From a virus: a stretch of DNA of 64,000 bases. Positions 898 to 30,218 of this stretch are shown here, piece after piece (position 1 is the first letter of the stretch; the number at the start of each line of letters is the position of its first letter). A model generated the notes under the pieces. The model was not told where the DNA came from, searched no databases, and was given only the letters and a program-made list of their open reading frames with translations. Position numbers and translations under genes: made by a program. The DNA is taken from IMG/VR virus record IMGVR_UViG_3300045988_154140, positions 1 to 64,000 of that record. One strand, written 5' to 3'.

Positions 898-1454
898 GGT
901 CTGCCTGCGTGTGCGTGTCCGCGTGTGCGCCTGCCTGAGCAGATTGGACGTACCGAGCTGGGCAGAAAGACAGGAAGACAGGGAGACAGGGAGGACAGCC
1001 CGACACACCGAGCAGGACAGGTCGCACGCGGGCATCTCCTGACCTTGCCAGCCTTGCCCCGACTGCCCACCCTGCCCCGTTTCCCGCCTTTCCCGCGTGT
1101 GTCATATTGTCAACAGGAGCGTCACACGCGCACCCTGTAAAACGTCCTTTTGTCAAGCCATTTTACTATTCCTCAATTTATCAAAACATTACACACTGAT
1201 ACACAACGACTTACGTGCATACTAAACATAATTTCCATTATTTAAGGCCGCTTTACAGCCCCGAAACGCTGACATTTTGCTACCTCATGCCGTTTTTCCG
1301 CGTATTTCGCGTTTTCCGTGCCTGGCTGTGGGCAAAGGGCATACGATGGCATATAGTGCACACCGCAGGCAGCTGGGCGCGTGATACGCGATGCACGGGA
1401 GAGCGCAGGCAATGCGCGTATGTCGGGCGTGTCGTGTGCAGGACGTTCGAAGCA

Positions 1455-8400: not shown

Positions 8401-11400
8401 TTTAATGCCTCGCGCAGCTTCTGGAGATAATAGTTTCCGAATTTACTTCTGAAAAGCTTATTATTTGCGTCCTCGGCATACGTTCTACCGATAGCCTTGC
8501 TGCTTGTCACATAAGTGCCCCAGCCAAAGGACTGACTCCCCTGACCCTCACCAATGTGGCTGTGGTCGAAAGCCTCAAATTCAGCACCAGAACCGTGCCA
8601 AACACGATTTTCACGAATGCCCGCAGAACTTTTTTCGCTCTCTTCAAGCAATTTTTTGCCTTTATCGTAGGACTTTTCAACTCCTTTTAGTAACTTTGCA
8701 AGCGGATAGGATGAATCAAGTCTTAATTGGTTCTGGCTACCCACACCATTAGGAGTGCTTGGCAATTCGTTGTCGAGCACTTCTATTTTTTGTACCTCGT
8801 ATGAGTGGATGCCATTATCTGTCGCCGCAGATTTTTCCTCGCGCATCAGCGTCATCACCCTGCAAGGCACACCGTCAATCACAACAGCACCATAAAACCT
8901 GTGCATAAGGGCAATCGGATTTATCCTTGCCCCGCGTTTCCCGTCCTTTCCTTTGATATAGTCGGGATGCTCTTCCACCTCAACGCTATGGTTTATCACT
9001 TCGTCAAGATGTTCTGCCAAAGCCAGATGGGCTCCCTTATTTCCGCTCTTAGCTTGGTGCTTCGGGCTTAGACAAATCTCTATCGCGTTACCAGAGATTG
9101 TATAGTCAAACTCTGTGCCGTTATTGTCGTAATGAAGAACCTTGGCCTTTCCGTCAGGAGCGTATTTCTCCTTTGCTTTTTGGATAGCCTGCTTCGTGGC
9201 CTCAGCTATATTTCCTGTATAGCTATGCCTTGGGATGCCATCGAGCACCTTAACTGACATGTCGTTTAAGCCTGGCATTACAATCCCTCGGTTTTCGACA
9301 GCCTGTTTCTGTCTTTCTGCAAAACTCTCTGGAGCGTCACCCATTTGGGTTCTTACCTTGCCGTTAGCCTCGTCCATCACACGCTGCCCTTCTTCCTCGT
9401 TTGTTATGACATCCATGCCATTCTCCCGCATTCTGTCTATCACGGCATCGCGCAAGATAGCTTCCTCCTTCGTAACAGGAGCAGCATCTTTTCCGCGCTG
9501 GTAGCGCTCATCAGCCTTGCGAGAGTTGAAACGCTTTGATGGTGGGATAATATTGCCCTTGTCATCGCGTGTTACTAAGTCGTTCTGCTTTCTGTTGTTC
9601 TTCACATTCTTATACCTGTAGCTCTTGCCGTTGTCGTAGCCCCACTCGTTCACGTCGTTGCTGTCCCACCAAAGGTCACCAGCTGGCACCTCGTCTTCAA
9701 TGATACGGTACTTACCCTCCAGACGGTTGTCGCCATGCAACTCAGCATACCTCCTCGAAGGAGTCACCCAATCACCATTGCGCAACTTGCCCTCCTTTAC
9801 AGTTGTAGGCACGGCGCGATACACCTTTATCCTCACATCCTTCTTGCCGTTCCGTATGTCGTCAATGGCTGTCTGTATCGCCTTGCCGCTCTCCTTGCTT
9901 GTTGGCAAGCCTTGCGAGTATTTATCAGGATGCTTAAAGATGTCTTCTGGTTGGTTGCTGTAGCCTGCTGCCATATCCTCCACATTGAGGTCTGGCGAGT
10001 CTTCACCAACGGCATTGCGTCTCGCTTCGTCCGTCTCATAATCAGGCTTTGAAGGTGCGCCCCAAGCACCTACGCCCTGGTAGTCGCTCTCGACATCACC
10101 ATACCCCTTACGTCTTGCAGCCTCGTCAAGCATCTCACGGGCAGTAGCCTCGTCACCTTTCGCCAAGGCATCCGCATAGCGTTCGTCTATCTCGTCTTCT
10201 GTGAGTAAAGACAACTCTTCCAAGTGCTGCTGCCTTTTGGCTTCTTCCTCTTCGGCTTTCTTGCGTGCAGCCTCCATCATGCCACGCTCTATCTCCGCTT
10301 GCTTTCTGCGCTCCTCGATAAGCACGTCCACGTCGCCATACTTCGCCTTAATCGCTTGCTCTACAGGCTCAAACAGACGCTTGTTAGCAAGAAGACCGCT
10401 CACTCTATCACGCTCCATCAACGCCTTCTTCTCCGCTATATGCTCACGCAGATATATAGCCTTTAGGTCATGAAGAGCCATTGCAGCCGCAGCTGAATTC
10501 CTTTCTCTCATACCCTCGGCATATCGGGAAAGCCACATACCATCCAAGCCATACTCCGCTGCAAACTCTGAATATTCGTCTGCTTTCTGGAGACGAGCGT
10601 GTGGTTTTTGCCCTGCGGCTTCTTCGGTGCGGATTATCTCCTTAATGATAGCGGCTTCATTCGGTGCAAGTAGAATTTTGCCTTGTTCGTAGGCATTCCA
10701 AGCCCCTATATAGCCGCTATACATTTTTACCGCTAATTCTATCTGTCCCGTTTCGGCTTTGGTGCTTCCGTATCGTATCTTGCCTATCTTCCATTCGGTA
10801 GCGTGGCTATCAGCATGCTTACTCGCTCCCGTCTTATACTTCTCGGGTGCGGGTGTTGCCTCCCACTTCGTACCTTTGATGACCTCTTCCGTCTTTTGAG
10901 GGCGCGTGTCCTTTGCGGCTTTAGCGGCTTTCTTGTATGCGGCTTCCACCGCTTTATCGGCTTCCTCGTATTCGGCGTTCGCCTTCTCACGCAACTCCTT
11001 CAGTACGGGGTCGGCCTTCATTGCCTCACGCTCTTTCTGCCCTTTTTCGGATGTTGTCTCCGCAGACAAAGTGGCTTGCGTTGGGTAGTGCTCAAAGAGG
11101 TAGTCCTGTATCTTCTCCTCCCATTTCTGCTCCACGTCACGCGCATGGTCATTCGCTTTTATGAAGTCTGGATTGTTCTCTACGAGGTGGCTTTCTATCT
11201 CTTCTTTCTGCCCCTTTTCTATAGGCAGTATGGAAGAATTATTAAACACAACAACCTCACCTCCATCAATCATATTATGTTCTACAGACCAAGCATTCAT
11301 ATAGTTAATGATGCCATCATATCCCTTACTCTTTAACAAGTTAGAGAACTGAACGGCTTCACTCTCGTTAAAGCCTGGATTACCAAGCATGTAGAATGGT

Positions 11401-14400
11401 TTGGATAGCTTTACATGTGCTTCAAATACCTGTCCATTATAGCCGTATTCTTCTGCAACGTCCTTGTTTGGAGTAAAGTACACACCACTACCTGCGAAAT
11501 CCGCACTTTCACCATCGGCGCGTTTGTGTCCTGCTTCAAGTTCTGACACACTGATAGATTTATCTAATGTACCATGGTAAAGAGTAATTGGGTTACCTGC
11601 ATTATCGGCAACGACACCTTCATCTGTCAAGTTTCTATGTTCCTGACTAATAGGTGTACATCCTCTCTCTCTCAATAGAGTTTGAATTTCCGAAGTGGTA
11701 TCTTCATCGGCAGGTGCGTTGATTTCCACAACGTCCTTCTTCACTGACGAGTACTCACCAAAAGGCTTAGTCTTACGCGTGCTTGACTCAATCCACTTCT
11801 CGAAGTCTTCGAGGTTCACAGCGGACACATCAATTCTGCGGCCATTCTCCCAGCCCTGCTCGTAATTGGCAAGGTAGTCGCTCTTAGCCTCGTCAGCATC
11901 ATTGAAGCCAAGCATAACCTTGTGCTCGTCAAAACTACCGTCAGGGTTGTACTGGTCAACGACGAACACCTTGCGTCCGTCCCAACCGTCAATATCATTG
12001 GAGAGGAACACGTCAATGTGGTCGCCGTCAACACCCACTGTACCACGAATGTAGCCGTAAGTGTTGTTCATCTTGCTTTCCCACTGCTTGCCGTCAGCAT
12101 CAGTGCCCCTACGCACGCTGCCCTGCGGCTGCTCAATGGTGATGTCGAACGTACCAACTTGTACATGCCCCTTCTTATAGTTGCCAGCTTCCTTCTGCGC
12201 CTCTGTCGGTTCGGTATTCACTTCGGCTGAGGCCGCTTCAATCTGGTTACCAACACTTTTTTCGTCATTTCCTTGCTCAGTTGAAGCCTTCTCTTTACCT
12301 TTGCCCTCAGAAGAGGTCGTTGGAGTTTCAGCGTTAATCGTTTCCTCACCGCCTTGTTGGGGATTCTGAGGCTTTGAAACATCTTCTGCGGTAGAAGATT
12401 GTGTCGGTTCGCTCGGCTCGTAGTCTTCTTGATTAGAGTTATTGGTTTGTGGCGCATCCGTGCCCTCTGTAGCGAGGTCGGACTTATTCCCTTGCGAAGA
12501 GTACAAGCCATCTGCCACGTCCGAGGCAGTCGAAACGTCATCGGCGCGTTTCCAAACCAATTTACCATTAAGAAGGAGGTCCAATATCTTGGACTTCCTT
12601 TTTTCTTGATTTGAAATCACGACCTCACGACCATCCTTGCGAACTGTTACAGATGTAAAATAATAGTATCGTGAGCCATCAGCCTTGTGGAATGTTTTTA
12701 CAAATACATAAGAGCTGCCACGTTCGGTAATATCTCCTTCTTTAGCCTCGCTCTTATCTTCGACTATAAAGTCAGGATTTTCAAGCGTAGGTTTAAGCAT
12801 ACCGAGTTTGCCATTACGTCCTTGCCGCATTAGCTTTGCAAACTGGTTCTCGCCCATCTTGACATCGCCAACTGGAGTTGGGATCTGCGTACCCTCATCA
12901 AATAGGGCATCCCAATTCTCTATTGTCAACTCAATTTGGGGAGCGACTTCTGCTCGCTCCTCCATCTGAGCAATGAGCGTAATAGCCTCTTCTCTGTTCA
13001 GTGTGCCTTCGCCTGCAATTTCTTCTTGGCTGCTTCCACTTCCTGTCGCACTTTGCGCTCCTCCAGCATTCTCTTGTGCAGCCTCTGGTTTACCAGCGCC
13101 TTCATCGCCAGCATCTTCTTCTGCTCTGGTGTCTGCGCGCTCTTCACCTCCTCGGGTGTCATCAGTCCGTTCGCCAGGTTGTACTTGATGGCTTCCACCA
13201 TCGCTCTGCTCTTCTCCTGCGGAGTCATTTCCTTCTGTTCCATTGCTCTGCTGTTTAGCTTGTTCTTCTCTTCTGCGTAAGTCCTCCTCTATCTCGTCTG
13301 CGTATAGCTTGGTGAACTCTTGCTCGTCAAAGTTACTATATCTTCTCAACATCTCGGGCATCTCCTGCTCGGTATATGCGATATAGTCCTCATAAGACAT
13401 GCCGTAGCGCTCGTTATAGTACGCATCGCGCTGCGCGTTGTACTGCTCCACAAACTCCTGCTCTTGGTCAGTCTTATCTCGTCCCGACTTGAGGAAGTCT
13501 ATAATGGCATCCCTTGCGGCAGCACTGTCACCGCCGAAGAAGCGGCCACCGTTCTCAGTGTTGTCAAGGTCAACCAACTTTTCGGACAGGCGTTCTATGC
13601 TGTCTCCCTCCTTCGCGATACGTCCTGCCCACTGCTTCTGCTCCAGCGTTCCGCCTCCAGTCTCTTTTCTGAAGGACTCAGGTGCTATCTTGGCACTTGC
13701 CATGAAGTCGGCGATGAACTCCTGCTGTGTGGGTATGCCGTTCTCGGCCTTTCGCTGTGCTCGGTAGGCCGTGCGTGCGTTATCATCGTTCAGTTCGCCC
13801 TCCCAGCCTTGCGCGTCTGCGGGTGTGGTTATTCTCTCCACTTCGGCTTTTACATCGTTCCAGTACTGAGCCTTGTGGCGGGCATCTTCCAGCTCGTCTT
13901 CCCACTTCTTCTTGCTGGCAAGGTACTTGGCCTTGTCAGTGCCTACCTTGGGCTTCCGCTTCTCCAGCTTCTTCACGTTCTTGTCGGCTTCCGCTATCTG
14001 TGCCTCTATGAACTCGCCCACCTCCTTGTCGTCAAGGGTACCGTCATACAGGTCTTCCACGGTGGCCTGCACAGGAGCCTTGTCGTACTGGGGTGCTCCG
14101 TCCTTATCCAGCGGTATCTTTGGAGTGGCCTTGCTCTCCACAGCGGGAGCGGCCTCACCCTCCACAACAGGAGCGGCTTCACCCTCCACTACAGCGGAAG
14201 ACCCGCCAGTTGGCCCCTCCTCGTCTGGTGCGTCCTTGCTATCCACGTAGTCATGCAGGAGTTGTTTCGTCTTGGCATCCCACTCAGACTCATCCACGAG
14301 GTCTATCCACTCATGGATTGTCTCGGCATCGTTCTCGTCACGCACCCAGCCGTCAACCATTGCGCGTGCGCTTCTTCCTTCCTCGGTAGCGTCCAACTGC

Positions 14401-17400
14401 GCGGCCACCTCGCTACGGGTAGGCACTGCTGTATCGGCAGGCGCGTCCTCCTCTGTAGCGGGAGTGCCCTCTATGACCACAGAAGAACCGTCAGTCGGTG
14501 TCTCCTCTGTTGCACCGCCCTCCGTAGTCTCCTCCACCGCGCTGCGCTCTGCATCGCGCTGCGCTGCGTCTTCCTGCTCATACACGTAGTCCTGGGAAGA
14601 CAGAAGCTCGTCAGCGGTGGCCTTGAAGGGTGTGCCGCTTATGGCTTCCTCCTCGCCTGCCTCGTTCATGCGTGTGGGCAGGAGATAGAAGTTACCCTCC
14701 TCATCCTCCTTCACGATGAGGAAGCGCTGTGTCTCGTTATCCTCGTCATCGCTCTTGCGCATGCTGATGCTGACCGTCTCACCCACGGCGGGCTGCACGG
14801 TCTTGTTATGGTGGTTGAGGTTCCAGCGTACTTCATCCTTCGCCTGCTCCCACAGCTGCTTGCGTCTGGCTTCTGTCTCCTCGCTGGCGTTGACGGCTGT
14901 CAGTTCTCCCGCCTCCTCACGCGGTATCATGCGCAGAGCGCCTGTCCCCATATCACGCACCACCAGCGTATTGCCTTCGTCAGACAGAGAAGAGGGTACG
15001 ACATATTCGTTCTCTCCAAGGTTAGAGCCGCGCCATGCGTTGCCCTCCTCGTCCGACATGAGGTTTAGCGTGTTGCCGTACTTGTCGGCTTCCTCGTCCA
15101 CGCGGTCATGCGCCCCTGCCATGATACCGCTCAGTCGGACGCTGGACAGATACACATCCGTAGCCGCCTTCTTCTGCTCCCAGTTCAGTGTCTTCAGTAT
15201 CTCCTGGAACTGCGGCAAGTCCATATCCCGCACGGCCATCACGAAGTCCTTGCCCAGCATTTCGGTAGCGGTTGCCGCTGCATTGTCAAACTCTACAGCG
15301 GCATTGTGGCGCTCGTCAACGGCCATCTCATGCCCCGCGTCAAACGCGCTCTTATAGCCACGCTGCACACGGTTTGCACTTATCTCCCCAGACATATCGC
15401 TTGTGTTTACGCTCTGGTAGGCCACCAGCTTACCAGCGTAGTCCATCAGCGCGCGCGCCTGCTCGCTGTCCTTCAGCCCGCCATCCTTGAGGACGGACAT
15501 ATACACGTCGCATATATCCTTGATGCTCTCTGCCTCGCGCATGCGGGTCATAAGAGGTACAGCGGTCTCCTCGCCCAACGACTTGCGCAGGGCATCGGCA
15601 GAGGTGTTCAGCTGGCGCTTGACGGTGTAGGAGTTGTAGCGCTTCTGGCCTTGCTCGATAGCGGCCATGGGCATAATCATCGCGGCCACCGACAAGAATG
15701 TCTCCAAGTTTGTCTCGGCGTTGAACATGGAGCCTTTCCAGTCGTTCACGGCTTTGTTGTAGTCCTCCTCGCTCTTGTAGTCCTCGCGCTTTGGCTCGAA
15801 GACACCTCCCGTCAGGTTCATGTCGCCTGTGAAAACCGCGTTCTCCAGGTTGTTTATCACTTCCTCTGCATACTCCCCGAAGAGGCCGCTTATGTGCGCT
15901 TTCTTGCGGAACTCGGCCAGCAGGGAAGCCTTCTGCTTCGGTGAGGATGCAATGAACCGCTCCACCATGCTGCGTGCCAAGGGCATATCCTTTGCGGCAA
16001 GGTTGGCAAAGTTCTTTATCGGGGAGAAGTATTCACCCACCAGCTCGGACTGGTTCTCGAAGTAGGAAGCCAAGCCCCCCTTGAGGTACGACTTAGCCCC
16101 TGTCTCTCTGTCCTCCACGCGGTCATACACTATGCGCCCGCTGTCATCCACACGGCCTATGAACGTACCCGTCTGCCTCTCGTTTATAGAGGCCATGGTA
16201 CGCGGCAGGCCAGTGGTGAGTGTTGTACCCAGTGCCTCCACTCCATCACCTATCACGCGCCCTGCGGTGTTCATCGCGCGCACGCCCCACTTGCCATATT
16301 TGTTCACGGCGGCTACGGTGAGGGCGCGCTGCATGCTCTGCTCGGCGGCGGTCATGGTAGGCGCGCCAGTCACGTTCTTCATCACCGTCTTACCCGCTGT
16401 CTTCATCGCGCCCTTCAGCACTTCCTTCACGCCTCCCTTGGCAGCGTTAGCCGCTACTTGCTTCTCCACAGCCGCACCCAGTCCGTTGAGCGGGTTGATG
16501 TAGATGCTAGCGGCAAAGCCCGCAGAGGCAGGCACGCTCTGTCCTACGCGGTAGGACATCGGCACGTGCTCACTGAAGTTAGCGTCCAGCGTGCTTGATA
16601 CCGCCATCGCGTCCAGCACTCTCTGCTCGGTTGCGGTCAGATGCTCCTCGGGTGTCTTGCCTGCCTCCTCGGCCTTGCGGATTCGCTCTGACTTATCTAC
16701 AAGCTCAGCCAGGTTACGGCTGTCTGCCCAGTCGTTGGCACCGAAGTCCCACGTGCGTATATCGCGGGTAGCGTCCCACGCGCCACGTGCCACGTTGAAG
16801 GCTGTGTTGTTGGAAAAGCCTTCGCGTGTAGCCTGCTTGATGGTGTTTTCTGTGTCCTCCAGTGCCTGCTCTGCGGCCTTGGCCTTGCCATACTCGGGGT
16901 CTGTCCACCTACGTATGTAAGAGGTCACGTTGGGGAACTGGCTCTCAGCGAACTCCATAAAGCCCGACTTCTCGCCTCGTCTCTCCTCTATGTCCTTCAA
17001 CGCGTTGGCCACCTCCTCCTTTGCAGCCTCGAGTTGTTCTCTGCCGCCTCCCAGCTCGTACTCGGCCTTCACATCGCGCCCGCGGTACTTCTTTTCTGCT
17101 GCGTCCCGCTGCTGCTGTAGGCGGTCTATGGCCTGCATGATATAGCCTTTGCGTGTCTCACTCGTCTGGTCGGTACCCTTAATGCGGTCATACTGCTCCC
17201 GCATGACGGTCAGCTGCTTGTCTATGCCTGCCAACTCCTCCTGCCGCTTGCGGTCTATCTCCTCTTGCGCGCGAGCCAGCTTACGCGCTTGCTCCTGCTG
17301 ATTGTCCAGAGCGGCCTGCTCACGCTCGGCAGAAGCCTGCGAGGTGTACTCGTTGCCGCTCTGTGTTATGTAGGTTCGCTCCTGCTTGCCTGTCTTGGCA

Positions 17401-17852
17401 TTGAACGTAGGAGCGGTGGCCACGGTACGACCCGACTTGCCAAGTCCAAGCTCTACCTTCGGCACGTTAAGCCCGAAGTTGGCCTTCTGCCACTCCTGCG
17501 CGTTCTCTGCCTGGTGCAGCACATCGCGCCCGCGTGCTACCGCCAGAGCGTTGTTCTTAGCCGCTCTTGCGTAGTCATCCGCGTTGGGCTGTGCCGCTCC
17601 ACCCTGCTCTTCGGCTGGATCCTCCTGCTTGGCTGGCTTCACGGCATGCAAGCCAAGGTTGGCAGCAAACTCCTCGTAGGTATTGCTCTCTACGGCGTTG
17701 TCCTGCTTCAGCGCAGTAAAGAGCGCGAGCCTGTTCTTGTAGCCTTCCTCACCAGGCGCAAGCATCTTAGCTCGGAAATTCTCTCTACCGCTTGTTACCG
17801 CGCCATCACGTTCCAGCGCATCGTATAGTATATCTAACTTATCTTGTGCCAT
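2424..17852 (-). CDS. Giant polyvalent multidomain protein (5142 aa), probable virion-packaged/ejected effector array
   Basis: Uninterrupted 15,429-nt ORF containing a DGDHIDV motif, two H-Y-E ART-like modules, two HExxH motifs, acidic/Pro-rich linkers and a hydrophobic C-terminal third. Architecture matches phage/ICE polyvalent proteins. Confidence 0.9.
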   Translation of the reverse strand: MAQDKLDILYDALERDGAVTSGRENFRAKMLAPGEEGYKNRLALFTALKQDNAVESNTYEEFAANLGLHAVKPAKQEDPAEEQGGAAQPNADDYARAAKNNALAVARGRDVLHQAENAQEWQKANFGLNVPKVELGLGKSGRTVATAPTFNAKTGKQERTYITQSGNEYTSQASAEREQAALDNQQEQARKLARAQEEIDRKRQEELAGIDKQLTVMREQYDRIKGTDQTSETRKGYIMQAIDRLQQQRDAAEKKYRGRDVKAEYELGGGREQLEAAKEEVANALKDIEERRGEKSGFMEFAESQFPNVTSYIRRWTDPEYGKAKAAEQALEDTENTIKQATREGFSNNTAFNVARGAWDATRDIRTWDFGANDWADSRNLAELVDKSERIRKAEEAGKTPEEHLTATEQRVLDAMAVSSTLDANFSEHVPMSYRVGQSVPASAGFAASIYINPLNGLGAAVEKQVAANAAKGGVKEVLKGAMKTAGKTVMKNVTGAPTMTAAEQSMQRALTVAAVNKYGKWGVRAMNTAGRVIGDGVEALGTTLTTGLPRTMASINERQTGTFIGRVDDSGRIVYDRVEDRETGAKSYLKGGLASYFENQSELVGEYFSPIKNFANLAAKDMPLARSMVERFIASSPKQKASLLAEFRKKAHISGLFGEYAEEVINNLENAVFTGDMNLTGGVFEPKREDYKSEEDYNKAVNDWKGSMFNAETNLETFLSVAAMIMPMAAIEQGQKRYNSYTVKRQLNTSADALRKSLGEETAVPLMTRMREAESIKDICDVYMSVLKDGGLKDSEQARALMDYAGKLVAYQSVNTSDMSGEISANRVQRGYKSAFDAGHEMAVDERHNAAVEFDNAAATATEMLGKDFVMAVRDMDLPQFQEILKTLNWEQKKAATDVYLSSVRLSGIMAGAHDRVDEEADKYGNTLNLMSDEEGNAWRGSNLGENEYVVPSSLSDEGNTLVVRDMGTGALRMIPREEAGELTAVNASEETEARRKQLWEQAKDEVRWNLNHHNKTVQPAVGETVSISMRKSDDEDNETQRFLIVKEDEEGNFYLLPTRMNEAGEEEAISGTPFKATADELLSSQDYVYEQEDAAQRDAERSAVEETTEGGATEETPTDGSSVVIEGTPATEEDAPADTAVPTRSEVAAQLDATEEGRSARAMVDGWVRDENDAETIHEWIDLVDESEWDAKTKQLLHDYVDSKDAPDEEGPTGGSSAVVEGEAAPVVEGEAAPAVESKATPKIPLDKDGAPQYDKAPVQATVEDLYDGTLDDKEVGEFIEAQIAEADKNVKKLEKRKPKVGTDKAKYLASKKKWEDELEDARHKAQYWNDVKAEVERITTPADAQGWEGELNDDNARTAYRAQRKAENGIPTQQEFIADFMASAKIAPESFRKETGGGTLEQKQWAGRIAKEGDSIERLSEKLVDLDNTENGGRFFGGDSAAARDAIIDFLKSGRDKTDQEQEFVEQYNAQRDAYYNERYGMSYEDYIAYTEQEMPEMLRRYSNFDEQEFTKLYADEIEEDLRRREEQAKQQSNGTEGNDSAGEEQSDGGSHQVQPGERTDDTRGGEERADTRAEEDAGDEGAGKPEAAQENAGGAQSATGSGSSQEEIAGEGTLNREEAITLIAQMEERAEVAPQIELTIENWDALFDEGTQIPTPVGDVKMGENQFAKLMRQGRNGKLGMLKPTLENPDFIVEDKSEAKEGDITERGSSYVFVKTFHKADGSRYYYFTSVTVRKDGREVVISNQEKRKSKILDLLLNGKLVWKRADDVSTASDVADGLYSSQGNKSDLATEGTDAPQTNNSNQEDYEPSEPTQSSTAEDVSKPQNPQQGGEETINAETPTTSSEGKGKEKASTEQGNDEKSVGNQIEAASAEVNTEPTEAQKEAGNYKKGHVQVGTFDITIEQPQGSVRRGTDADGKQWESKMNNTYGYIRGTVGVDGDHIDVFLSNDIDGWDGRKVFVVDQYNPDGSFDEHKVMLGFNDADEAKSDYLANYEQGWENGRRIDVSAVNLEDFEKWIESSTRKTKPFGEYSSVKKDVVEINAPADEDTTSEIQTLLRERGCTPISQEHRNLTDEGVVADNAGNPITLYHGTLDKSISVSELEAGHKRADGESADFAGSGVYFTPNKDVAEEYGYNGQVFEAHVKLSKPFYMLGNPGFNESEAVQFSNLLKSKGYDGIINYMNAWSVEHNMIDGGEVVVFNNSSILPIEKGQKEEIESHLVENNPDFIKANDHARDVEQKWEEKIQDYLFEHYPTQATLSAETTSEKGQKEREAMKADPVLKELREKANAEYEEADKAVEAAYKKAAKAAKDTRPQKTEEVIKGTKWEATPAPEKYKTGASKHADSHATEWKIGKIRYGSTKAETGQIELAVKMYSGYIGAWNAYEQGKILLAPNEAAIIKEIIRTEEAAGQKPHARLQKADEYSEFAAEYGLDGMWLSRYAEGMRERNSAAAAMALHDLKAIYLREHIAEKKALMERDRVSGLLANKRLFEPVEQAIKAKYGDVDVLIEERRKQAEIERGMMEAARKKAEEEEAKRQQHLEELSLLTEDEIDERYADALAKGDEATAREMLDEAARRKGYGDVESDYQGVGAWGAPSKPDYETDEARRNAVGEDSPDLNVEDMAAGYSNQPEDIFKHPDKYSQGLPTSKESGKAIQTAIDDIRNGKKDVRIKVYRAVPTTVKEGKLRNGDWVTPSRRYAELHGDNRLEGKYRIIEDEVPAGDLWWDSNDVNEWGYDNGKSYRYKNVKNNRKQNDLVTRDDKGNIIPPSKRFNSRKADERYQRGKDAAPVTKEEAILRDAVIDRMRENGMDVITNEEEGQRVMDEANGKVRTQMGDAPESFAERQKQAVENRGIVMPGLNDMSVKVLDGIPRHSYTGNIAEATKQAIQKAKEKYAPDGKAKVLHYDNNGTEFDYTISGNAIEICLSPKHQAKSGNKGAHLALAEHLDEVINHSVEVEEHPDYIKGKDGKRGARINPIALMHRFYGAVVIDGVPCRVMTLMREEKSAATDNGIHSYEVQKIEVLDNELPSTPNGVGSQNQLRLDSSYPLAKLLKGVEKSYDKGKKLLEESEKSSAGIRENRVWHGSGAEFEAFDHSHIGEGQGSQSFGWGTYVTSSKAIGRTYAEDANNKLFRSKFGNYYLQKLREALNNGRSFESEKQRLLDSHSEMYNKAKEKGSGYNDFIHDYEKLGELKENDLPSRHLYTVEITDDNGKNYLDWDSRVGARVLNKVNRQLEQQGKRPINPELDKRYKFLDGNDLYRALSIRMPNDDATFNDDKAASEFLYSLGFVGIRYKAGRNFGGAKEGDTNYVIFNEKDAKITDHVRFFRTADGEAYGFTVDGKIYIDPKIANSETPVHEYAHLWASALRQSNAKEWANVVGLMKDTAVWEEVKKHYPELKTDDEIADEVLATYSGRRGAERLRKEMEEATKNGSIFDKAEAMSAMQKIRQALDTFWKSVADFLHIHYTTAEEVADRVMKDLLDGVDPRMMNDGESLERVNEKFNEQLAKFTEDNSDKINFNLGSPSAKLLSAGVADKPIRLHGSKVAKKMKKHGFSIEELHDLPKAVANPIAVFDNLGKEGNRSVLTELKTANGNFLVAIDLGKGTEADFDIVSSVFGKKGHSVAAWINKGYMRFVDKKKALNYLHLSAPIAEASDNAELSSAAKVIQDFENPKVSDEKVSEDDLYRVVDDEEKQQAYKGAAYMDDAAIEALNSEYRGEWLKREGEGQATDEEVSLANDPVSKMIGKSRYSAGQQVEYAENMRERMTTHAQELAEKLHLSNVEIVADGSGFTGKRQKAKGFYNKTTGKITVVIGNHTSMADVEKTILHEAVAHHGLRQLFGEHFDQFLDNVYESCDYKIRQKIDALMEEKGYDQRTATEEYLASLAEDMNYETTDPTFWTAIKEAFLDMLHTLGFDYAGPVLTDNELRYILWRSYKNLEEPGSFRSILGTAEDLKMQETLGVGQYETEGKESAAAEDLFREDDISRALNNDSEGAGWSRETMQRAWDDVMSKASFLAKEGYFDYLASVDEFQKLVERATGEKVSDMQNAYKAMLQLSSRNANEMKLFDSAFARPLQRAVYRLIGAVKDFKKGKGLELSWYLISKHGIERNRDMAIRAAMKEKANESYAEQIHEATAELKEERTQLLAELTRIAAGEESTLGTEAAIKARVKQIEAEIDSIKKHPNKHGLKTEAEFYEDELDNWYRTASFIKEYAEENGWTWRETQEELTRRAADFGADVTEDYSGLSALVEEKEDFTEAAYRRVENYENTHYTDDLWEAIRAMSGYSLEKQRSSGLTTKKYVDDQLRRYDFFVPLRGWADPTAEEMYDYLDGQRSELGNPVKTAKGRKSEADNPLGGLLSVAYRSIASGNKNMALQHFYNLVSAHNTNGLAVIDSMWVENRGTEDAPDWVLATPELTDPMTGGREMSAEEVQAELDRFNADMREKAALGMAIQMKKGTPLPPYRVTQQHARAHQIRLSVGGTNRVITIVGNPRVAMALNGLLNPENSGWPILRKLNNFMAGAFTNYNVSFGGANLARDTAHSNLRAFIGESPAYWWALTKKQNLLLGNVANWARMVGMLRKYEAGKPMTGYHERMFKEFMDGGGATGYTMIRNQKESTQFMVDMVRDLKNINRRKLSPMRMFEFFSFLNEAAELVNRFVAYETSREMGRTRERSIDDAKEATLNFNRKGAGAKSLTQREGTKYRLSNALNYYSQYGRSFIVFFNAHVQGTYQLYRLVKEHPAKFAFAFGAAPVTAAAVALPLFNNLLLPAIYSAVGGDGDDDWGDYYYELSDWERQHNICLRLPKGHGWLKIPLTPELGAMFQVGDVTGASFAGKRDMQASDFAGLMELVAPNNVDFTDAGTAISSLVPSSLQWASHIAVNRDFKGSRLRNDNMFSRYQPEYLKATRSTSATITAMSRALNKVGGGNDERSADNVLDFSPGYVQEMLTGIAGGWASTALAVSDALAAPYLEGGGSEKDYWKGAKGLFDRGGVPVLSRFWISGSGERNAARAKGEYMRTVKPFMGATESEFSLIKRIPRPAALDVRAKEEKLEAAKKSHDLFAIAKAEKSLEAAKANFEEAKKTQRQKLDALQGSERFKAYRDMRGITRYIDYMLRLYKDNDLPDNVVDSLQEANRRLLEVEK
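6354..6371 (-). other. Zincin HExxH motif 2 (HEAVAH, aa 3828-3833)
   Basis: EKTILHEAVAHHGLRQLFG read directly from the reverse complement. Confidence 0.55.
7767..7781 (-). other. Zincin HExxH motif 1 (HEYAH, aa 3358-3362)
   Basis: ETPVHEYAHLWASAL read directly from the reverse complement. Confidence 0.55.
7905..8603 (-). other. ADP-ribosyltransferase-like module 2 (paralogous to module 1, large insert)
   Basis: VWHGSG (aa 3084-3089), FGWGTYVTS, GFVGIRYKAG, NYVIFNE (E3316). Confidence 0.5.
11238..11600 (-). other. ADP-ribosyltransferase-like module 1 (H-Y-E type)
   Basis: LYHGT (aa 2091-2095), GSGVYFTP, GYDGIINY, GGEVVVFNN (E2199). Confidence 0.55.
12009..12029 (-). other. Inorganic-pyrophosphatase-like DGDxxDV motif (aa 1942-1948 of giant protein)
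   Basis: VGVDGDHIDVFL is close to the family-I PPase signature D-x-D-x-x-D-x; surrounding NYKKGHVQVGTF...YGYIRGT. Confidence 0.4.
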
Positions 17853-22043: not shown

Positions 22044-23276
22044 CTATAATTCCTCCCCAAAGTCGAATTTCATCTGTTGGAACTTCTCGGCATACCATCG
22101 TTTGTATGATTTACCCGAAATCCACCAGTCATAGATATTCTCCGCTATTTCGTTTTCTTGCTCCTCTGTCAAGCGGTCAGAAGAGGAGCTGGATGAAAAC
22201 CCCGATTGTCTCTCTCCACATTTCGTGCCATTCGATCGTTTGGTATCGCTCTCCAAATGTCCTTTTGGTAGGAATTGAGGCGTTTTGCCCCCTGTCCAAT
22301 GCCCTGGGTCGGGATGCTTGATGTAGCCCGCATCTGTTTTTCTGAGCAATCCTCTTACGTTGCTTGAAGGAACCTTGTCTTCGCGGATATTCCACCAGAC
22401 ATATTCCTCTTTGAACCCAGTATTCCTACGGATGGCCTTAATAGCCCTTATCCAACCTCGCTTGACGTGCGGATAGCGAGCGTTTTCGAGCATTTTCTGC
22501 TTGTATGAACTCATTGGGCAACTTATACAGCCTATGCGGTGCCAGCCTTCATCGTAGAGGGAGCAGTGCGGTACCTTCACCACATCGTTGAGAAATTCCC
22601 ACACGTCTTGCTCCGTCCAGTAAATGATGGGTGATACAAGTAGAGTCTCTTTGCCGTGGATGCAGCCTAATGTCTGTTCCTCGTCAGCATTGGTGATGTT
22701 CACTCCCTCCTTCTTCGACTTTCGCCTCAGGCGTTTAGCCTTCTGTTCCTGTCGGTACTTCTCCAGCTCGTCGAGGTCGCCACTAAACTTTCGGTTGCTC
22801 GTCTCAACCTCGTTGCGCTTGGCTCGGCGCGAACTCTCTGCCTTGCGGATGCCGATGAGCGTTACCTTTCCAGCGCCTGCCAGCTCCTTGTATTCGGCGC
22901 AACACCATCGCACACGCTTTGTGGGTAATATCCGTTTTTCGATGGCAATCTGAAAGATGCTCTTCTTCGGCTTTATGAGTTCAACTTCTGGATAGTTCCT
23001 CTTTACGAAGCGTATCACTTCGGGAGGGTCAACGCTCGTGAGATTCATGTGGCCTTGAAATTTCACTCCTGCTAACTGCGCCATGTGGTAGAGAGCCTGC
23101 GAGTCCTTGCCGCCGCTAAACGCAAGGTAATAGCCTTGCTCGGCATCATAGTTGAGCGCAATCTTCTCTGCCTTTTGCAGCAACTCAAACGAGTGAAGCA
23201 TCTTCTTTCGCAGTCGAGCCGAAGCACGGGCTAATGCCTCGTCAAGTAGAATTTTTGTATTCAAGTCTTTTAACAT
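22044..23276 (-). CDS. PP-loop ATP pyrophosphatase, PAPS-reductase/DndC/IbrA-like
   Basis: AFSGGKDSQA PP-loop, RWCCAEYK, GIRKAESSRR, RIGCISCP; its ATG overlaps the stop of the MTase-like gene. Confidence 0.8.
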   Translation of the reverse strand: MLKDLNTKILLDEALARASARLRKKMLHSFELLQKAEKIALNYDAEQGYYLAFSGGKDSQALYHMAQLAGVKFQGHMNLTSVDPPEVIRFVKRNYPEVELIKPKKSIFQIAIEKRILPTKRVRWCCAEYKELAGAGKVTLIGIRKAESSRRAKRNEVETSNRKFSGDLDELEKYRQEQKAKRLRRKSKKEGVNITNADEEQTLGCIHGKETLLVSPIIYWTEQDVWEFLNDVVKVPHCSLYDEGWHRIGCISCPMSSYKQKMLENARYPHVKRGWIRAIKAIRRNTGFKEEYVWWNIREDKVPSSNVRGLLRKTDAGYIKHPDPGHWTGGKTPQFLPKGHLESDTKRSNGTKCGERQSGFSSSSSSDRLTEEQENEIAENIYDWWISGKSYKRWYAEKFQQMKFDFGEEL

Positions 23277-24471
23277 TCTATAATTATATAAGGCGTAGTA
23301 TTACATAAGCCGTCTGCTTCGGTGAAGCCGTTTTTACCCGTAAACCTTGTAAGGGTATTGGCTATCTCCTTGCGTGGTCTCTTGATCACGTTTCCATGGC
23401 TGTCTCTCACCCAGCCGATGTAATACTTGTCAGTCATACTCTCATCCTTCTTCATCTTCATATTCTCCTTGAACATCTTATAGAAACCACGCCAATACTC
23501 TACATCCATTTTCTTAGGGTTCTCCTTGAACTTTTCGTAGAGATGGGCGATGGCAGGGCGATGATAGCTCAGCTCCTTTTCGTTCCATTCTACGCCCTTG
23601 TCCCATCCATCGTGGCGTTCCATGAATATCTGAAGCACGGTCTTTATGAACATTGCGGCCTCGTGTGTCGTCGGCAGGTCGAACTGCATGAAGAGGGCGT
23701 TGTCGGAATCGTTTGCCTTGAAGAACTTGCTCACGGCATCGTCCTTGAGGAAGTACCGCTCTTCTGCCTCGTCCAGCAGCACATCCTCCAACCGCTTGTC
23801 CAAGGCGATAGTCTCTGGAAACTGGAAGTCAAAGGCCACATCGCTCCGCATGGACAGACAGAATACCCTGTCTCTGTTCTGTGGCACGCCGTAGTTCTTT
23901 GCGTTGAGCCGCTGCCACCTCGATACGTAGCCAAGCCGCCACAACTTATTGAGCCACGCCTGGAAGTCGGGAAGGAAGTTCTTGTTTACCAGCGCCGCCA
24001 CGTTCTCCCACAAGAGGAACTTAGGGCGCAAAACTCCCACCGCGTCTGCTACATGCCACAGCAGGGACGAGCGCGTACCGCTGCCCTCCTTCATGCCCAT
24101 CTGCTTGCCAGCGTTGCTGTGGTTTGGCATTTCGGGCAGCTCTTCGTCTGGGAAGAGGCTCATCTGTCCGCTTGGTTCGCGGTGTTTAGGGTACCACAGC
24201 TGCTCGTAGATATAGGCAAGCACATCAACGACAATGCTGTTTCCTGCTTGTCTGTACTGCTGTGCTGCTGTGCTGCTGACACCGCCATTTCGTCCTTCTT
24301 GCCCTTTGGTTTGAAGCCTGCTATACGCTTCTCTGCCTGTGCGTTCGTGCTCTGCATCGTGTGTATCACATCATCGCGCACGCCCATCAGCCTGAAACAC
24401 TCAAAGGGTGTAAGCTTGCGCATCGCGTAGGACTTAATGCTTCGGTCCCTGTAGTTCAGTTTCAATATCAT
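23270..24471 (-). pseudogene. Permuted, degenerate, frameshifted C5-cytosine methyltransferase-like gene
   Basis: Motif order is IX (RKLTPFECFRLMG), X (QAGNSIVV, other frame), IV-like PNHSNAGK (no Cys), VI LWENV, VIII QNRDRVF. No FxGxG motif found. Two ORF-track pieces (24160-24471, 23270-24223). Confidence 0.7.
24254..24277. repeat. Three tandem 8-mers causing the MTase-like frameshift
   Basis: + strand GTACTGCT GTGCTGCT GTGCTGCT. Removing one unit fuses ...VSAAQQ to YRQAGNSIVV in frame. Confidence 0.85.
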
Positions 24472-24817
24472 CGTGTAGTTGCTTTAGCACCCTCCTTTGA
24501 TTACATGTTCCGTGCATCTTTATTAGTTGCCACAGAAATTCCTCTGTTTTGAAACGTACTCGGTATTTTATCTCCCGATAGGAAATTATGTTTTTATCTG
24601 GAAAACCAGGTTTAATGTGGTCCCATCTTTCGAGGACGTTTAGGTAGGAGAAATACCCCTTATCTATCTCAACGGTTAGTTCTGTGTAAGCATCCGAGTC
24701 CTCTAACGAATCTGGCCAATCTTCCAAATCTACTTCCATAAAGAAGTATTTATCTCGGTTCGAGTCTGTTTTGAAACCAAGTTCTAATAGGGTCTTTCTT
24801 ATCTTCTCTTTATCCAT
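24434..24817 (-). CDS. hypothetical protein
   Basis: 127-aa ORF, AT-richer than its neighbours, tightly packed. Confidence 0.55.
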   Translation of the reverse strand: MDKEKIRKTLLELGFKTDSNRDKYFFMEVDLEDWPDSLEDSDAYTELTVEIDKGYFSYLNVLERWDHIKPGFPDKNIISYREIKYRVRFKTEEFLWQLIKMHGTCNQRRVLKQLHDDIETELQGPKH

Positions 24818-24818
24818 A

Positions 24819-25625
24819 TCACTTACCCGTTAGCATCTTCTTTACTCTCTGCCACAAAGAGGGCTTGCGGTCTCTCTTAATCTGCTCTACGTACTTTACC
24901 ACTCTTTCATATTCTCTCCCGCTCACATTGCTGTCCTTGTAGGCTTTAGCAATTAGCTCCTTGCCCGTGCCATAGAAGCATCCAACGCGCCACATGTCAT
25001 TGCTGCGTGTCCATGTAAAGTACCTACCCGATGTCCACCAATTCTTAAAGACAATATAGTCGTAGTTGGATTCTATCACCGCGTCACCGCCAATTTTGGC
25101 CCAACCACTTATGCCCAAGGTCTGAGGATTTCTTTGTCTTATAACAGCAAAATCGTAAATCGCAGCGCTACCACATATACATACCCAGCCACGAACAGAA
25201 GCAGAATCCTCAACAGTAGCTTTTTCGGCAATAACCGCACTATTGCTTACGCAAGCCATGCCAGAAACGCGCGCACGTTGGCTAACAATTGCGCCATTAT
25301 AAACCTTAGCCTCGTCAGCTACCCAAGCGTGGTCTCTAACAATTGCGCCATTATAAACCTTAGCCTCGTCAGCTACCCAAGCGTGGTCGCGTAGGTTTTC
25401 ATAGCTTTCAACAAAACCGCCCAGAGTGCCTTTCGTTATATTCGGGAAATCCTCTGTACATCTTATGCGGTGCAGCGTATGCCCGTCAAACTCAATGGTC
25501 TCATCGGTCAACTCATAATGCCTATTTTCTTTCATAATTTTATCTTTCATAATTTTATTATAACCCCGAATTGTGTCACATATTCTATTGATAAGTCCAT
25601 ACAGGCTTGCTCTCTCGTTCTCCAT
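24819..25625 (-). CDS. beta-helix repeat protein, YdcK-like (paralog A)
   Basis: HRIRCTEDFPNITKGTLGGFVESYENL followed by hexapeptide-like repeats; resembles the E. coli YdcK N-terminus from memory. Confidence 0.6.
   Translation of the reverse strand: MENERASLYGLINRICDTIRGYNKIMKDKIMKENRHYELTDETIEFDGHTLHRIRCTEDFPNITKGTLGGFVESYENLRDHAWVADEAKVYNGAIVRDHAWVADEAKVYNGAIVSQRARVSGMACVSNSAVIAEKATVEDSASVRGWVCICGSAAIYDFAVIRQRNPQTLGISGWAKIGGDAVIESNYDYIVFKNWWTSGRYFTWTRSNDMWRVGCFYGTGKELIAKAYKDSNVSGREYERVVKYVEQIKRDRKPSLWQRVKKMLTGK
25282..25389. repeat. 54-bp near-perfect tandem duplication inside paralog A
   Basis: CTAACAATTGCGCCATTATAAACCTTAGCCTCGTCAGCTACCCAAGCGTGGTC x2 duplicates the 18 aa RDHAWVADEAKVYNGAIV. 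Confidence 0.9.
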
Positions 25626-26593
25626 CAGCCAAGCTCCTTAATACTTTCTACATACTTCACGAGCAGCTCTCGGTTCTTGCCGTGTAGCTCTCCCTTCTCG
25701 TAGCCCTTCTTGATGAACTCCTCTGCTGGGCAGGGGCTGTTTATGCTAAGACCGTCGCAATGCCACATGTCGTTGCTGCGTGTCCAAACAATCTCGTACC
25801 CCTCATGGAGCCAATCGGTGAACACCACATAGTCCCTGCTACTTATCACCTTCGCATCCCCGCATATACGGAAGGTTCCCTTTATAGGGATAAACACCTT
25901 TTTAGGCCCTGGAAGCCCCTCACATCTGACCTCTGCTTCGTCTGTAACGTAAAGAGCGCCCATAGAATATGTCATGCCACCTACAACGGCATACCCGTCC
26001 ACCATTGTATTGCCCATAAGCCAGGCGTGGTCACATACCAAAGCACAGCCGCCCACATGAGCGCACTCCCCTAAATTGGCATGGTCACAGACACGTGCGT
26101 CCATGCCTACACAGGCATATTCTGTCACCCTTGCATGGCCTTCTATCCTTGCATTGTCTGTTATTTCCGCGTTGTCTTTAACAACAGCGTGGTCTGTGAC
26201 AACGCAGTTACCCTTGACCTCGGTGCAGTCGCCAACACCTGCGTTACCGCTTACCTCTGCATCCATGACGAAAGCATGGTCGCCTACATAAGCGTTACCG
26301 CTTATCGTGGCCGTTCCGCAGACCTTTGCAAAGCCAAATACCATCGCAGTCTCCTTGATGATTGCGGATCCTTTTACCTTTGCGTACTCACATACAACTG
26401 CTTCATCCTCCACCCAGGCCTGTTCACTTAGGTTCTTGTAGTCTTCTATCCAACCACCGACATCCCCTGCCTTGTAATCGCGGAAGTCCTTTGTGCATCT
26501 GATACGGTGTACTACGCGGTTATAAAACTTCTTGGTTTCGCCCGTAAACTCGTAATATCTCTCTTCTTCCATATCTCTATTCTGTTTAACCAT
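25625..26593 (-). CDS. beta-helix repeat protein, YdcK-like (paralog B)
   Basis: HRIRCTKDFRDYKAGDVGGWIEDYKNL plus about 10 hexapeptide-like turns. The second ATG (MEEERYY) may be the real start. Confidence 0.6.
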   Translation of the reverse strand: MVKQNRDMEEERYYEFTGETKKFYNRVVHRIRCTKDFRDYKAGDVGGWIEDYKNLSEQAWVEDEAVVCEYAKVKGSAIIKETAMVFGFAKVCGTATISGNAYVGDHAFVMDAEVSGNAGVGDCTEVKGNCVVTDHAVVKDNAEITDNARIEGHARVTEYACVGMDARVCDHANLGECAHVGGCALVCDHAWLMGNTMVDGYAVVGGMTYSMGALYVTDEAEVRCEGLPGPKKVFIPIKGTFRICGDAKVISSRDYVVFTDWLHEGYEIVWTRSNDMWHCDGLSINSPCPAEEFIKKGYEKGELHGKNRELLVKYVESIKELG

Positions 26594-29510: not shown

Positions 29511-30218
29511 TTACTCTGTAACCAGTTCCCAGTCCTCCGCAAATACATCGCTGGACGATGGAACCCATGAATCAGCGCGTCCGTCTTGGTTAATGATGAG
29601 CATCTGGTTTATGTATTTCAGGCATGGTTTCTGACGCTTCATCAGGATGTCCTTCGCAATCTGAGGCAGCGACTGCATATTAGGGATGGTCTCGCTTATA
29701 ATATGAGCGGGAACTTGCTTAATAACAAACATACCCTTGCCATTCCAGCCAGCTCTACGGATAGCACCACCCGCTTTAAGGAACTTGATAGCCGTACCGA
29801 AGTCATAGTTGTTGAGAGATTCCTTCCCATCAGACATCCGTTCGAGTCTATCATTCAACAGATAGGAATACTCCCTCTCTGTTTCAACCTGTGCTGAAAG
29901 AAGTGCCTTCGTGGGGTGTATGAGGGCATAACCTTCGTTTGCCAAAAACTCCATTCCCTTCGCAAAGCGCGTATTCAATTCTTCAAGCTGAATCTTAATA
30001 TGGTCAGCAGGAGCCTCAGCAACTCTATAGGCTTTCTCAAAAACAGACTTTGGAGACCAAGAGTCGTAGATGCTACCGTCTGGGTTGGTGTACTGCACAT
30101 GATAGCCTTCACGCCATTCGTGGTTGTCCTCGTTCTTGCGGGCGTAACCTTTCTCTACTGCGGCCAATTCGTTCATCGGCATGGCCTTTACCGTTTTTGT
30201 TCCTACATAAGTTTTCAT
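29511..30218 (-). CDS. Two-domain protein: small phage N-domain + DUF2829/Tad2-like C-domain
   Basis: C-terminal FGTAIKFLKAGGAIRRAGWNGKGMFV...SWVPSSSDVFAEDWELV matches DUF2829 hallmarks (GWNGKG, D.LAEDWE). Confidence 0.7.
   Translation of the reverse strand: MKTYVGTKTVKAMPMNELAAVEKGYARKNEDNHEWREGYHVQYTNPDGSIYDSWSPKSVFEKAYRVAEAPADHIKIQLEELNTRFAKGMEFLANEGYALIHPTKALLSAQVETEREYSYLLNDRLERMSDGKESLNNYDFGTAIKFLKAGGAIRRAGWNGKGMFVIKQVPAHIISETIPNMQSLPQIAKDILMKRQKPCLKYINQMLIINQDGRADSWVPSSSDVFAEDWELVTE

Follow-up and report, generated by a model that had tools for sequence, protein, structure and literature searches.

C5-cytosine methyltransferases whose conserved motifs run in a circularly permuted order occur naturally. 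The described examples are M.BssHII, M.Alw26I, M2.Eco31I, M.Esp3I, and M2.BsaI, with 22 more in REBASE, and in every one of them the permutation lies within the variable region, mostly with the target recognition domain (TRD) first, an arrangement known as type H; C5-methyltransferases that have been "bisected naturally" are also on record (PMC5944983). Here we analyze a damaged methyltransferase gene of this permuted kind in the viral record IMGVR_UViG_3300045988_154140, positions 1 to 64,000 (the whole 64,000-nucleotide stretch is called "the window" below). The gene lies on the minus strand within positions 22044 to 24471 and is directly followed by a gene for a PP-loop enzyme with a 3'-phosphoadenosine-5'-phosphosulfate (PAPS) reductase domain. 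We conclude that this locus is very probably a recently decayed pseudogene of a naturally permuted phage C5-methyltransferase, located beside a slot for unrelated accessory genes. The intact relatives of the window gene follow the same permuted logic as the M.BssHII group, but the phage family starts 16 residues before motif IX and has its TRD at the C terminus ("type J"-like), and the window copy itself carries a deletion and a frameshift. With M.HhaI, M.HaeIII, and M.MpeI (PF00145, TIGR00675) the phage family shares the catalytic core, from which it differs in its permuted order, while the window copy also lacks motifs I to III and the Pro-Cys of motif IV.

The features of the locus, in the order in which the coding strand is read, are as follows.

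24160 to 24471, minus strand: 5' fragment of the methylase pseudogene, a 103-amino-acid open reading frame (ORF), matching positions 270 to 306 of the PF00145 profile
24382 to 24420, minus strand: motif IX, RKLTPFECFRLMG
24252 to 24278, minus strand: tandem 8-bp array AGCAGCAC AGCAGCAC AGCAGTAC detected by TRF, exact units at 24254 to 24277
23270 to 24259, minus strand: 3' fragment of the methylase pseudogene, from motif X to PYIIIEC and the stop codon, matching positions 74 to 227 of the PF00145 profile
24227 to 24250, minus strand: motif X, QAGNSIVV(DVL), just upstream of the 317-amino-acid ORF and in its frame
24104 to 24127, minus strand: PNHSNAGK, deletion scar and tail of motif IV
24116 to 24119, minus strand: deletion junction, shared CAGC, placed by DNA alignments, protein alignment, and the second-sample contig L106
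23999 to 24013, minus strand: motif VI, LWENV
23861 to 23881, minus strand: motif VIII, QNRDRVF
23270 to 23276, minus strand: ATGTTAA stop/start overlap forming the cassette junction, with the methylase TAA at 23270 to 23272 and the PP-loop ATG at 23274 to 23276
22044 to 23276, minus strand: intact 410-amino-acid PP-loop gene with a PAPS reductase domain (PF01507)

The gene fails to form one uninterrupted reading frame because an 8-bp insertion splits it into ORFs of 103 and 317 amino acids. The 103-amino-acid ORF starts with MILKLNYRDRSIKSYAMRKLTPFECFRLMG, i.e., with motif IX; its residues 1 to ~66 are homologous to the relatives, with 95% identity to residues 1 to 69 of P0003 (P numbers denote homologous proteins, and L numbers denote the contig loci compared), and past the extra 8-mer it is read out of frame until the stop codon at 24160 to 24162. 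The ORF of the 3' fragment extends over 23270 to 24223 from a GTG codon (317 amino acids), and gene callers prefer the ATG at 24163 (297 amino acids). Along the 3' fragment come motif X, a linker, the deletion scar, the tail of motif IV, motifs VI and VIII, a helical insert, and the TRD tail, which ends in ...ANTLTRFTGKNGFTEADGLCNTTPYIIIEC; GSGTRSSLLW stands between PNHSNAGK and LWENV. An earlier reading of the window, made from the letters alone and called the sequence-only reading here, had listed these motifs in this order on the minus strand, and its positions are correct to within a few bases. The range that it gave for QNRDRVF, 23867 to 23881, spans only QNRDR, although the motif itself is present.

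The Pfam searches proposed with that reading find both families. The 317-amino-acid ORF matches positions 74 to 227 of the 324 in PF00145 (E = 1e-26, 94.5 bits, cut-off of 22), the translation repaired by removing one 8-mer, which has a frame of 397 codons, matches PF00145 in two stretches with 122 bits, and the downstream ORF matches PF01507 (E = 4e-19). Motifs VI (ENV), VIII (QxRxR), IX, and X are retained in the window copy. Profile positions 1 to 73 are unmatched in the window ORF, so that the FxGxG-type loop of motif I, which binds S-adenosylmethionine (AdoMet), and motifs II and III are absent, as the sequence-only reading had noticed for motif I. Translocation of the motif I to III segment within the 64-kb window was considered and is ruled out by tblastn, in which the best hit has an E value of 0.89. 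A scan of the coding strand for promoters and terminators gave no candidates, and a megablast search of the region against GenBank phages gave no match.

The order of the motifs is explained by the relatives, which were collected by querying 5.8 billion proteins with the repaired translation. The close relatives are 479 to 491 amino acids long and 65 to 85% identical, and they cover only 71% of the repaired query; those at 81 to 85% identity have every motif, in permuted order. Motif IX (RKLTPFECFRLMG) and motif X (QAGNSIVV) come first, and ~40 linker residues (...PKHREPSGQMSLFPDEELPAMPDHSDDEKV) lead from there to motif I (TTFSGYDSQ). Next are motif IV (SSPCQDLSNAGK), motif VI (QENV), and motif VIII (QNRDRVF), and after a helical insert the proteins close with a TRD tail, which ends in ...NTTPYIIIEYD. 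All 18 aligned relatives have motifs IX and X upstream of motifs I to VIII in an intact ORF, and all 18 keep TTFSGYDSQ and SSPCQ; the core motifs are conserved and the TRD is C-terminal across the 20 aligned family members. The window copy likewise has motifs IX and X ahead of motifs IV to VIII, with motif I deleted, and its C terminus reads ...IIIEC and stop in place of the ...IIIEYD and stop of the relatives. The permutation point lies in the variable/TRD region: the N terminus begins 16 amino acids before motif IX, the ~40-residue linker between motifs X and I joins the former termini, and the C-terminal tail matches TRD modules. In P0265, a homologous tail is N-terminal and runs straight into the motif IX sequence RRLTPRE (...MANTAPYILIDDNGKKSIRRLTPREVYRLMG; E = 7e-12), just as the sequence-only reading had guessed when it joined the C-terminal end of the gene to its N-terminal end. 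Judged from these alignments, the rearrangement that it proposed is a real circular permutation and a family-wide trait of a known kind.

In a HMMER search, most of the best 150 clusters at 50% identity are canonical in order, with ~40 to 55% identity over the core; in these, residues 122 to 350 of the query align with residues 4 to 225 of the protein, and motifs IX and X form a second stretch. Collinearity with the permuted query is seen in few clusters. Since most of the nearest clusters are canonical, the permuted family appears to be an offshoot of ordinary phage dcm enzymes. The relatives have good scores against Pfam and TIGR00675 (dcm), the latter 159 bits for P0003. Alignments of P0003 with M.MpeI (8c56; E = 5e-30) and with M.HhaI (E = 8e-21) cover motifs III to VIII, residues 157 to 334 of P0003 corresponding to residues 42 to 208 of M.HhaI. 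Based on these matches, the intact relatives are putative C5-cytosine methyltransferases. An AlphaFold2 model of P0003 from the 20-sequence alignment has low confidence (mean predicted local distance difference test score of 35.6, predicted template modeling score of 0.23) and was left unused; structural statements are based on the sequence alignments to M.HhaI and M.MpeI. A scan of genome contigs for a host or prophage returned nothing beyond a relative with 39% identity in a Clostridium metagenome-assembled genome, and we assign no host. These relatives document a natural permuted C5-methylase family in phage contigs of human-gut type.

What sets the window copy apart from its relatives is two lesions. 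DNA alignments with the syntenic phages L002, L004, and L088 show that the window copy has lost 279 bp (93 codons) that these phages contain, and columns 116 to 208 of the protein alignment are missing solely in the window. The lost segment consists of motifs I to III and the Pro-Cys-Gln of motif IV. Its breakpoints lie in imperfect direct repeats of ~17 nucleotides, TGCCA-GACCACAGCGA (context, ...TGCCAGACCACAGCGA...) and ...TGCCAAGACCTCAGCAA..., and the junction in the window reads TGCCAAACCACAGCAACGC. Motif IV is SSPCQDLSNAGK in the relatives and MPNHSNAGK in the window, where MPD/NHS derives from the linker that precedes motif I, and SNAGK represents the tail of motif IV. Because the breakpoints fall in the linker and in the tail of motif IV, "PNHS|NAGK" is best read as a deletion scar and not as a Cys-to-Asn substitution. 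The deleted residues, 117 to 208, include the segment aligned to residues 42 to ~86 of M.HhaI, a span that includes motif IV with the catalytic Cys81 of M.HhaI. The degenerate motif IV with Asn for Cys that had been read from the sequence is thus replaced by a deletion that contains PCQ, and the supposed new type of protein without motif I and catalytic Cys reduces to a single haplotype-specific 279-bp deletion, as the 18 relatives keep both motifs.

The second lesion is in the 8-mer array, for which TRF reports a period of 8, 3.4 copies, 94% matches, and a score of 47; the pattern has 0 occurrences in 100 shuffles. The aligned relatives L002, L004, and L088 have two units, GTGT-CAGCA(A/G)CACAGCAGT(A/T)C, which in L088 is CAGCAGCACAGCAGTAC, and at the protein level 18 further relatives keep the frame. 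Compared with these, the window has exactly one extra AGCAGCAC unit, which puts motifs IX and X in different frames. Removing one unit, the repair suggested by the sequence-only reading, yields ...SAAQQYRQAGNSIVV, the canonical junction in all relatives.

These comparisons suggest how the gene was lost. An in-frame loss of 279 bp between short imperfect direct repeats would be the footprint of replication slippage or illegitimate recombination, presumably the mechanism of the deletion, and an 8-bp tandem duplication, from two units to three, would have thrown motif X out of frame with motif IX. The two lesions would have arisen independently and would each contribute to inactivating the methylase in the window haplotype. 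Neither AdoMet binding nor a covalent Cys-C6 intermediate is predicted for the product, which is therefore not expected to methylate DNA, and we infer that methylase activity has been lost in the window copy. Meanwhile, the PP-loop gene would occupy a hypervariable accessory slot at the methylase's 3' end, a slot that is empty or holds a radical-SAM gene in sister phages. The remnant also deviates at five sites that are invariant in 19 relatives (E236G, Q245W, D265N, P311T, and Y493C), while the median among the other sequences is one such deviation; Q245W, which adjoins the ENV of motif VI, is unique among the 20 sequences. These deviations may be taken as a mild sign of relaxed constraint. 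Of the alternatives that the sequence-only reading had put forward, a decaying dcm-type gene is the one that matches the comparative data, namely, two lesions and intact relatives.

The link between the methylase and the PP-loop gene was examined in the same syntenic phages. The window is a phage genome, with genes for a portal protein, a DNA polymerase, a primase-helicase, an exonuclease, a SNF2 helicase, and a Tad2-like protein. The gene order in the lineage is a322-b268-c127-MT-[slot]-f67-g156-h71-SNF2, where MT is the methylase and the content of the slot is variable. The alleles found are as follows.

L002 and L088: methylase intact; nothing in the slot and no PP-loop gene
L004, L005, and L006: methylase intact; a 340-amino-acid radical-SAM gene (phrog_9298) in the slot, at 7461 to 8483 in L004
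L107, L108, and L109 (P0040), at 4537 to 5739 in L107: in-frame deletion of 258 bp; no PP-loop gene
Window: deletion of 279 bp plus 8-bp duplication; PP-loop gene in the slot
L008, L110, and L111: a different, larger deletion, in which P0003 residues 48 to 199 are replaced by ~60 nucleotides of filler and CQDLSNAGK is kept; PP-loop gene in the slot

The P0040 deletion, between 13-nucleotide direct repeats (GTGATAYGCACGA), removes motif X and the linker, and this allele comes from three samples of different studies. In L008 (4092 to 6287, the same as in L110 and L111), one extra T joins the methylase remnant and the PP-loop ORF in a continuous frame of 731 amino acids with both PF00145 and PF01507; except for this T, the methylase/PP-loop junctions of the window and L008 are identical. 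A common junction points to one PP-loop insertion event followed by independent decay of the methylase in the two haplotypes. Because the P0040 deletion occurred without any PP-loop gene, the methylase seems simply to be prone to decay, with or without that gene beside it. Counted by haplotype, the methylase is lost in 2 of 2 that carry the PP-loop gene and in 1 of 4 that do not, a difference that is not significant. The lineage thus contains three alleles with recurrent, independent, repeat-mediated deletions, which would fit methylases as dispensable or counter-selected anti-restriction cargo. Loss of the methylase may have been neutral or favored, for example, by hosts that restrict 5-methylcytosine-containing DNA.

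The pairing of the two genes is not conserved. When the metagenome and viral collections were scanned with a pattern specific for the junction, the only other haplotype recovered was that of L008. At 75 of 80 viral PP-loop loci there is no C5-methylase match in the flanks examined (up to 5 kb); four of the remaining five have weak matches to an unrelated methylase, and only L008 has a methylase of the window type. The sequence-only reading had itself set two outcomes against a functional pair, ordinary motif I to X dcm genes in the relatives and a pair that is not kept together, and both are seen here, with the qualification that the relatives are complete but permuted. The stop/start overlap that it took for translational coupling is present (ATGTTAA, 23270 to 23276), but the same kind of overlap occurs with a different downstream gene in L088 and L002, where such overlaps are usual in the operon; in L088, the ATG of f67 overlaps the methylase stop codon likewise. 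The overlap is therefore more plausibly the ordinary junction of a tightly packed operon, with no functional link. Read in this way, the unusual order of the motifs, the absent Cys, and the frameshift come down to a family permutation plus two ordinary mutational lesions, and the link to the PP-loop gene would be an accident of a swappable accessory slot.

In addition, the PP-loop gene directly adjoins a radical-SAM gene (phrog_9298), on either side, in 22 of the 80 viral loci (L011-13, L024-26, L031, L044, L052, L056, L058-59, L070, L073, L076-81, and L083-84). The two look like a mobile two-gene accessory cassette, of which the window would have only the PP-loop half.

The PP-loop gene is intact. 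Its SGGKDS motif is at 23100 to 23117 (residues 54 to 59), and the ORF matches positions 3 to 173 of the 175 in PF01507 with 69.6 bits (cut-off of 22.5), the sole Pfam match at an E value of ≤0.1. The protein also has a CC...CxxC cysteine pattern, which we take to resemble that of Fe-S adenosine-5'-phosphosulfate (APS) reductases, and an insert rich in Lys and Arg. Its best PHROG is phrog_424, "PAPS reductase," in the category of morons and auxiliary metabolic genes; its PDB matches (FAD synthase and PAPS reductase) are weak, and it scores under every curated NCBIfam cut-off. The best 120 of its 1,509 homologues are stand-alone proteins of 402 to 450 amino acids with PF01507 only, and no fusion protein is among them. 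We therefore treat the gene as a putative independent phage accessory gene that is full length for its family.

The PAPS-reductase-domain proteins DndC, SspD, and BrxP modify DNA, and phosphorothioation needs such a protein together with a P-loop NTPase (DndD, SspC, or BrxC) (PMC12914056). The window protein is like CysH, DndC, SspD, and BrxP in having a PF01507 domain with an SGGKDS PP-loop. It differs from DndC, SspD, and BrxP in falling below the NCBIfam cut-offs, and its matches to BrxP (38.7 bits over 77 of 779 profile positions) and SspD (E = 6e-4) are weak and partial. The immediate neighbors of the PP-loop gene are small proteins and the SNF2 helicase; no DndD/SspC/BrxC-type NTPase was noted beside it, in a neighborhood not scanned specifically for one. 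The locus thus shows neither the full-length DndC/SspD/BrxP match nor the adjacent NTPase of a phosphorothioation system. Nor does it resemble an IbrA-type system, as the protein has no DUF3440 match and no ParB-like (IbrB) protein was found in a scan of seven window proteins, three of the five downstream ORFs being among them. The label PAPS-reductase/DndC/IbrA-like given to the gene by the sequence-only reading holds for its first part (PF01507 and phrog_424) and is not borne out for DndC or IbrA.

Three other explanations of the locus were weighed against decay. One is that the deletion, the extra 8-mer, or both are errors of short-read metagenome assembly in a gene that is actually intact. 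Deletions flanked by repeats and miscounted tandem units are known failure modes of assemblers, and the contigs in question all share a single study and pipeline. However, the source contig of the window is from sample SAMEA4545294, and L106, a separately assembled contig from sample SAMEA4545319, carries the identical deletion junction and the same three 8-mer units. A 50-bp deletion elsewhere sets L106 apart from the window and makes it an independent observation of both lesions, and the identity of the lesions makes an assembly artefact unlikely. The exact fragment proteins are found on three contigs (297 amino acids) and four contigs (103 amino acids), and the imperfect repeats that flank the deletion are well under read length. 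We consider this explanation very unlikely; assembly error was named at the outset as a way in which the extra unit could prove spurious, and at the contig level the lesions instead recur in a second sample. Another explanation, also from the sequence-only reading, is that the 8-mer array, by changing its copy number through slipped-strand mispairing, serves the phage population as an on/off switch for the methylase. The array is a real tandem repeat, the extra sequence is exactly one unit, and removing it restores the frame. Even so, with motifs I to IV deleted, the window haplotype would have no functional ON state, and no copy-number variation of the 8-mer was seen within this haplotype in the contigs from the two samples, in which the three-unit allele is fixed; the three aligned relatives each carry two imperfect units, and the protein sequences of 18 others stay in frame. 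Known contingency loci have tracts far longer than two to three copies of an 8-mer. A switch is the least probable of the explanations considered, and we give it almost no weight.

The remaining alternative is that the AdoMet-less remnant, with motifs IV to VIII and the TRD, is kept as a DNA recognition and base-flipping module for the Fe-S PP-loop enzyme, for a modification other than methylation; the two proteins might then form a two-part enzyme that adenylates and then derivatizes a flipped cytosine or that thiolates DNA. Several observations weigh against simple decay and in favor of such retention. In each of the two PP-loop-linked methylases, an independent deletion removed the AdoMet half and left an open frame of ~290 codons, and in L008, L110, and L111 the remnant is fused in frame to the PP-loop ORF; the open frames and the fusion could hint at retention. 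The ratio of nonsynonymous to synonymous substitution rates (dN/dS) between the window and L008 remnants is 0.25, compared with 0.19 to 0.28 for intact copies, and the window-specific substitutions (10 synonymous and 7 nonsynonymous) are not clearly neutral. The involvement of DndC, SspD, and BrxP in DNA modification provides a precedent for the enzyme. However, the differences between the window and L008 are clustered and mosaic and are shared with intact alleles; they are therefore probably older than the inactivation, and recombination with intact alleles would account for the low dN/dS. The adjacency occurs in only two haplotypes across all collections searched, and the best PP-loop homologues include no fusion. 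The N termini of the two remnants differ, as the window has no Cys, while L008 keeps CQ without the Pro and without motif X. Judging by the M.HhaI fold, half of the Rossmann sheet (motifs I to III) is gone, and independent folding of the rest is unlikely. The third deletion allele, P0040, arose without any PP-loop gene, and the weak, partial BrxP and SspD matches and the lack of a noted NTPase partner, in neighbors not scanned specifically for one, offer no help. Since the pair is not conserved and most viral PP-loop loci have no methylase match, the base-flipping scaffold of the sequence-only reading is not supported, and we regard both the retained module and the two-part enzyme as improbable. 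Decay of a permuted methylase beside a swappable slot remains our preferred reading.

The 50-bp deletion in L106 (positions 400 to 450) lies inside the 127-amino-acid gene upstream of the methylase (window 24434 to 24817, minus strand), where it would cause a frameshift. It is a further sign of ongoing decay and microdiversity in the accessory region.

More distant relatives of the methylase show another arrangement of the TRD. In these, the permuted core is a 441-amino-acid ORF that is followed by a tandem array of two to five conserved mini-ORFs of 38 to 63 amino acids (L007, 7587 to 8200; L089, 5584 to 6197; L093, 5319 to 7489; L094, 5940 to 6736; L104, 1743 to 2608; and others in L090-L103). 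Each mini-ORF ends in (I/V)LIEY(D/E), KVL(I/V)EL, or VEL before its stop codon, with frequent ATGA-type stop/start overlaps. The mini-ORFs match TRD modules that lie in the variable region of long, canonical C5-methylases with several TRDs (up to 34 matches; best E = 2e-7) and may be detachable specificity subunits. A group I or group II intron between the 441-amino-acid core and the distant C-terminal exon-like piece was considered and rejected, as there was no Rfam match at the gathering score or at an E value of ≤1; the gap between the core and that piece in the relatives holds small TRD-like ORFs. Multispecific C5-methyltransferases of the Bacillus phages SPR, phi3T, and rho11s have modular TRDs of ~40 to 60 amino acids, and M.AquI and M.EcoHK31I are naturally split C5-methyltransferases. 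The likeness to the SPR, phi3T, and rho11s enzymes is that both the C-terminal tail in the window and the mini-ORFs of its relatives match TRD modules of long multi-TRD enzymes; the difference is that in the related phages these modules are separate small ORFs after a permuted core instead of tandem domains within a single polypeptide. In the window lineage, a single TRD module of the mini-ORF type (MTDKYYIGW...) is fused to the core. Detached TRD mini-genes would matter for the engineering of split or permuted methyltransferases.

Elsewhere in the window, positions 2424 to 17852 (minus strand) are a single ORF of 5,142 amino acids. On the source contig, the record of the identical gene lists PBECR2, InPase, ART-PolyVal, MuF_C, and LPD38 domains; such a product is a "polyvalent protein," a type that phages and conjugative elements inject. 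The gene at 29511 to 30218 (minus strand) encodes a 235-amino-acid protein with a C-terminal Tad2-like (Thoeris anti-defense 2) domain (PF11195; E = 1e-18), which means that the region of the replication module carries anti-defense cargo. The adjacent genes at 24819 to 25625 and 25625 to 26593 (minus strand) are paralogues with 27% identity and repeats like those of hexapeptide or left-handed beta-helix proteins. The first of them contains an exact internal duplication, in which DHAWVADEAKVYNGAIV occurs twice, and the copy content of these paralogues varies between relatives. A second array of three 8-mers, AAGACAGG AAGACAGG GAGACAGG, is located at 967 to 990 (plus strand) and is the only other one that a script scan of the window detected.

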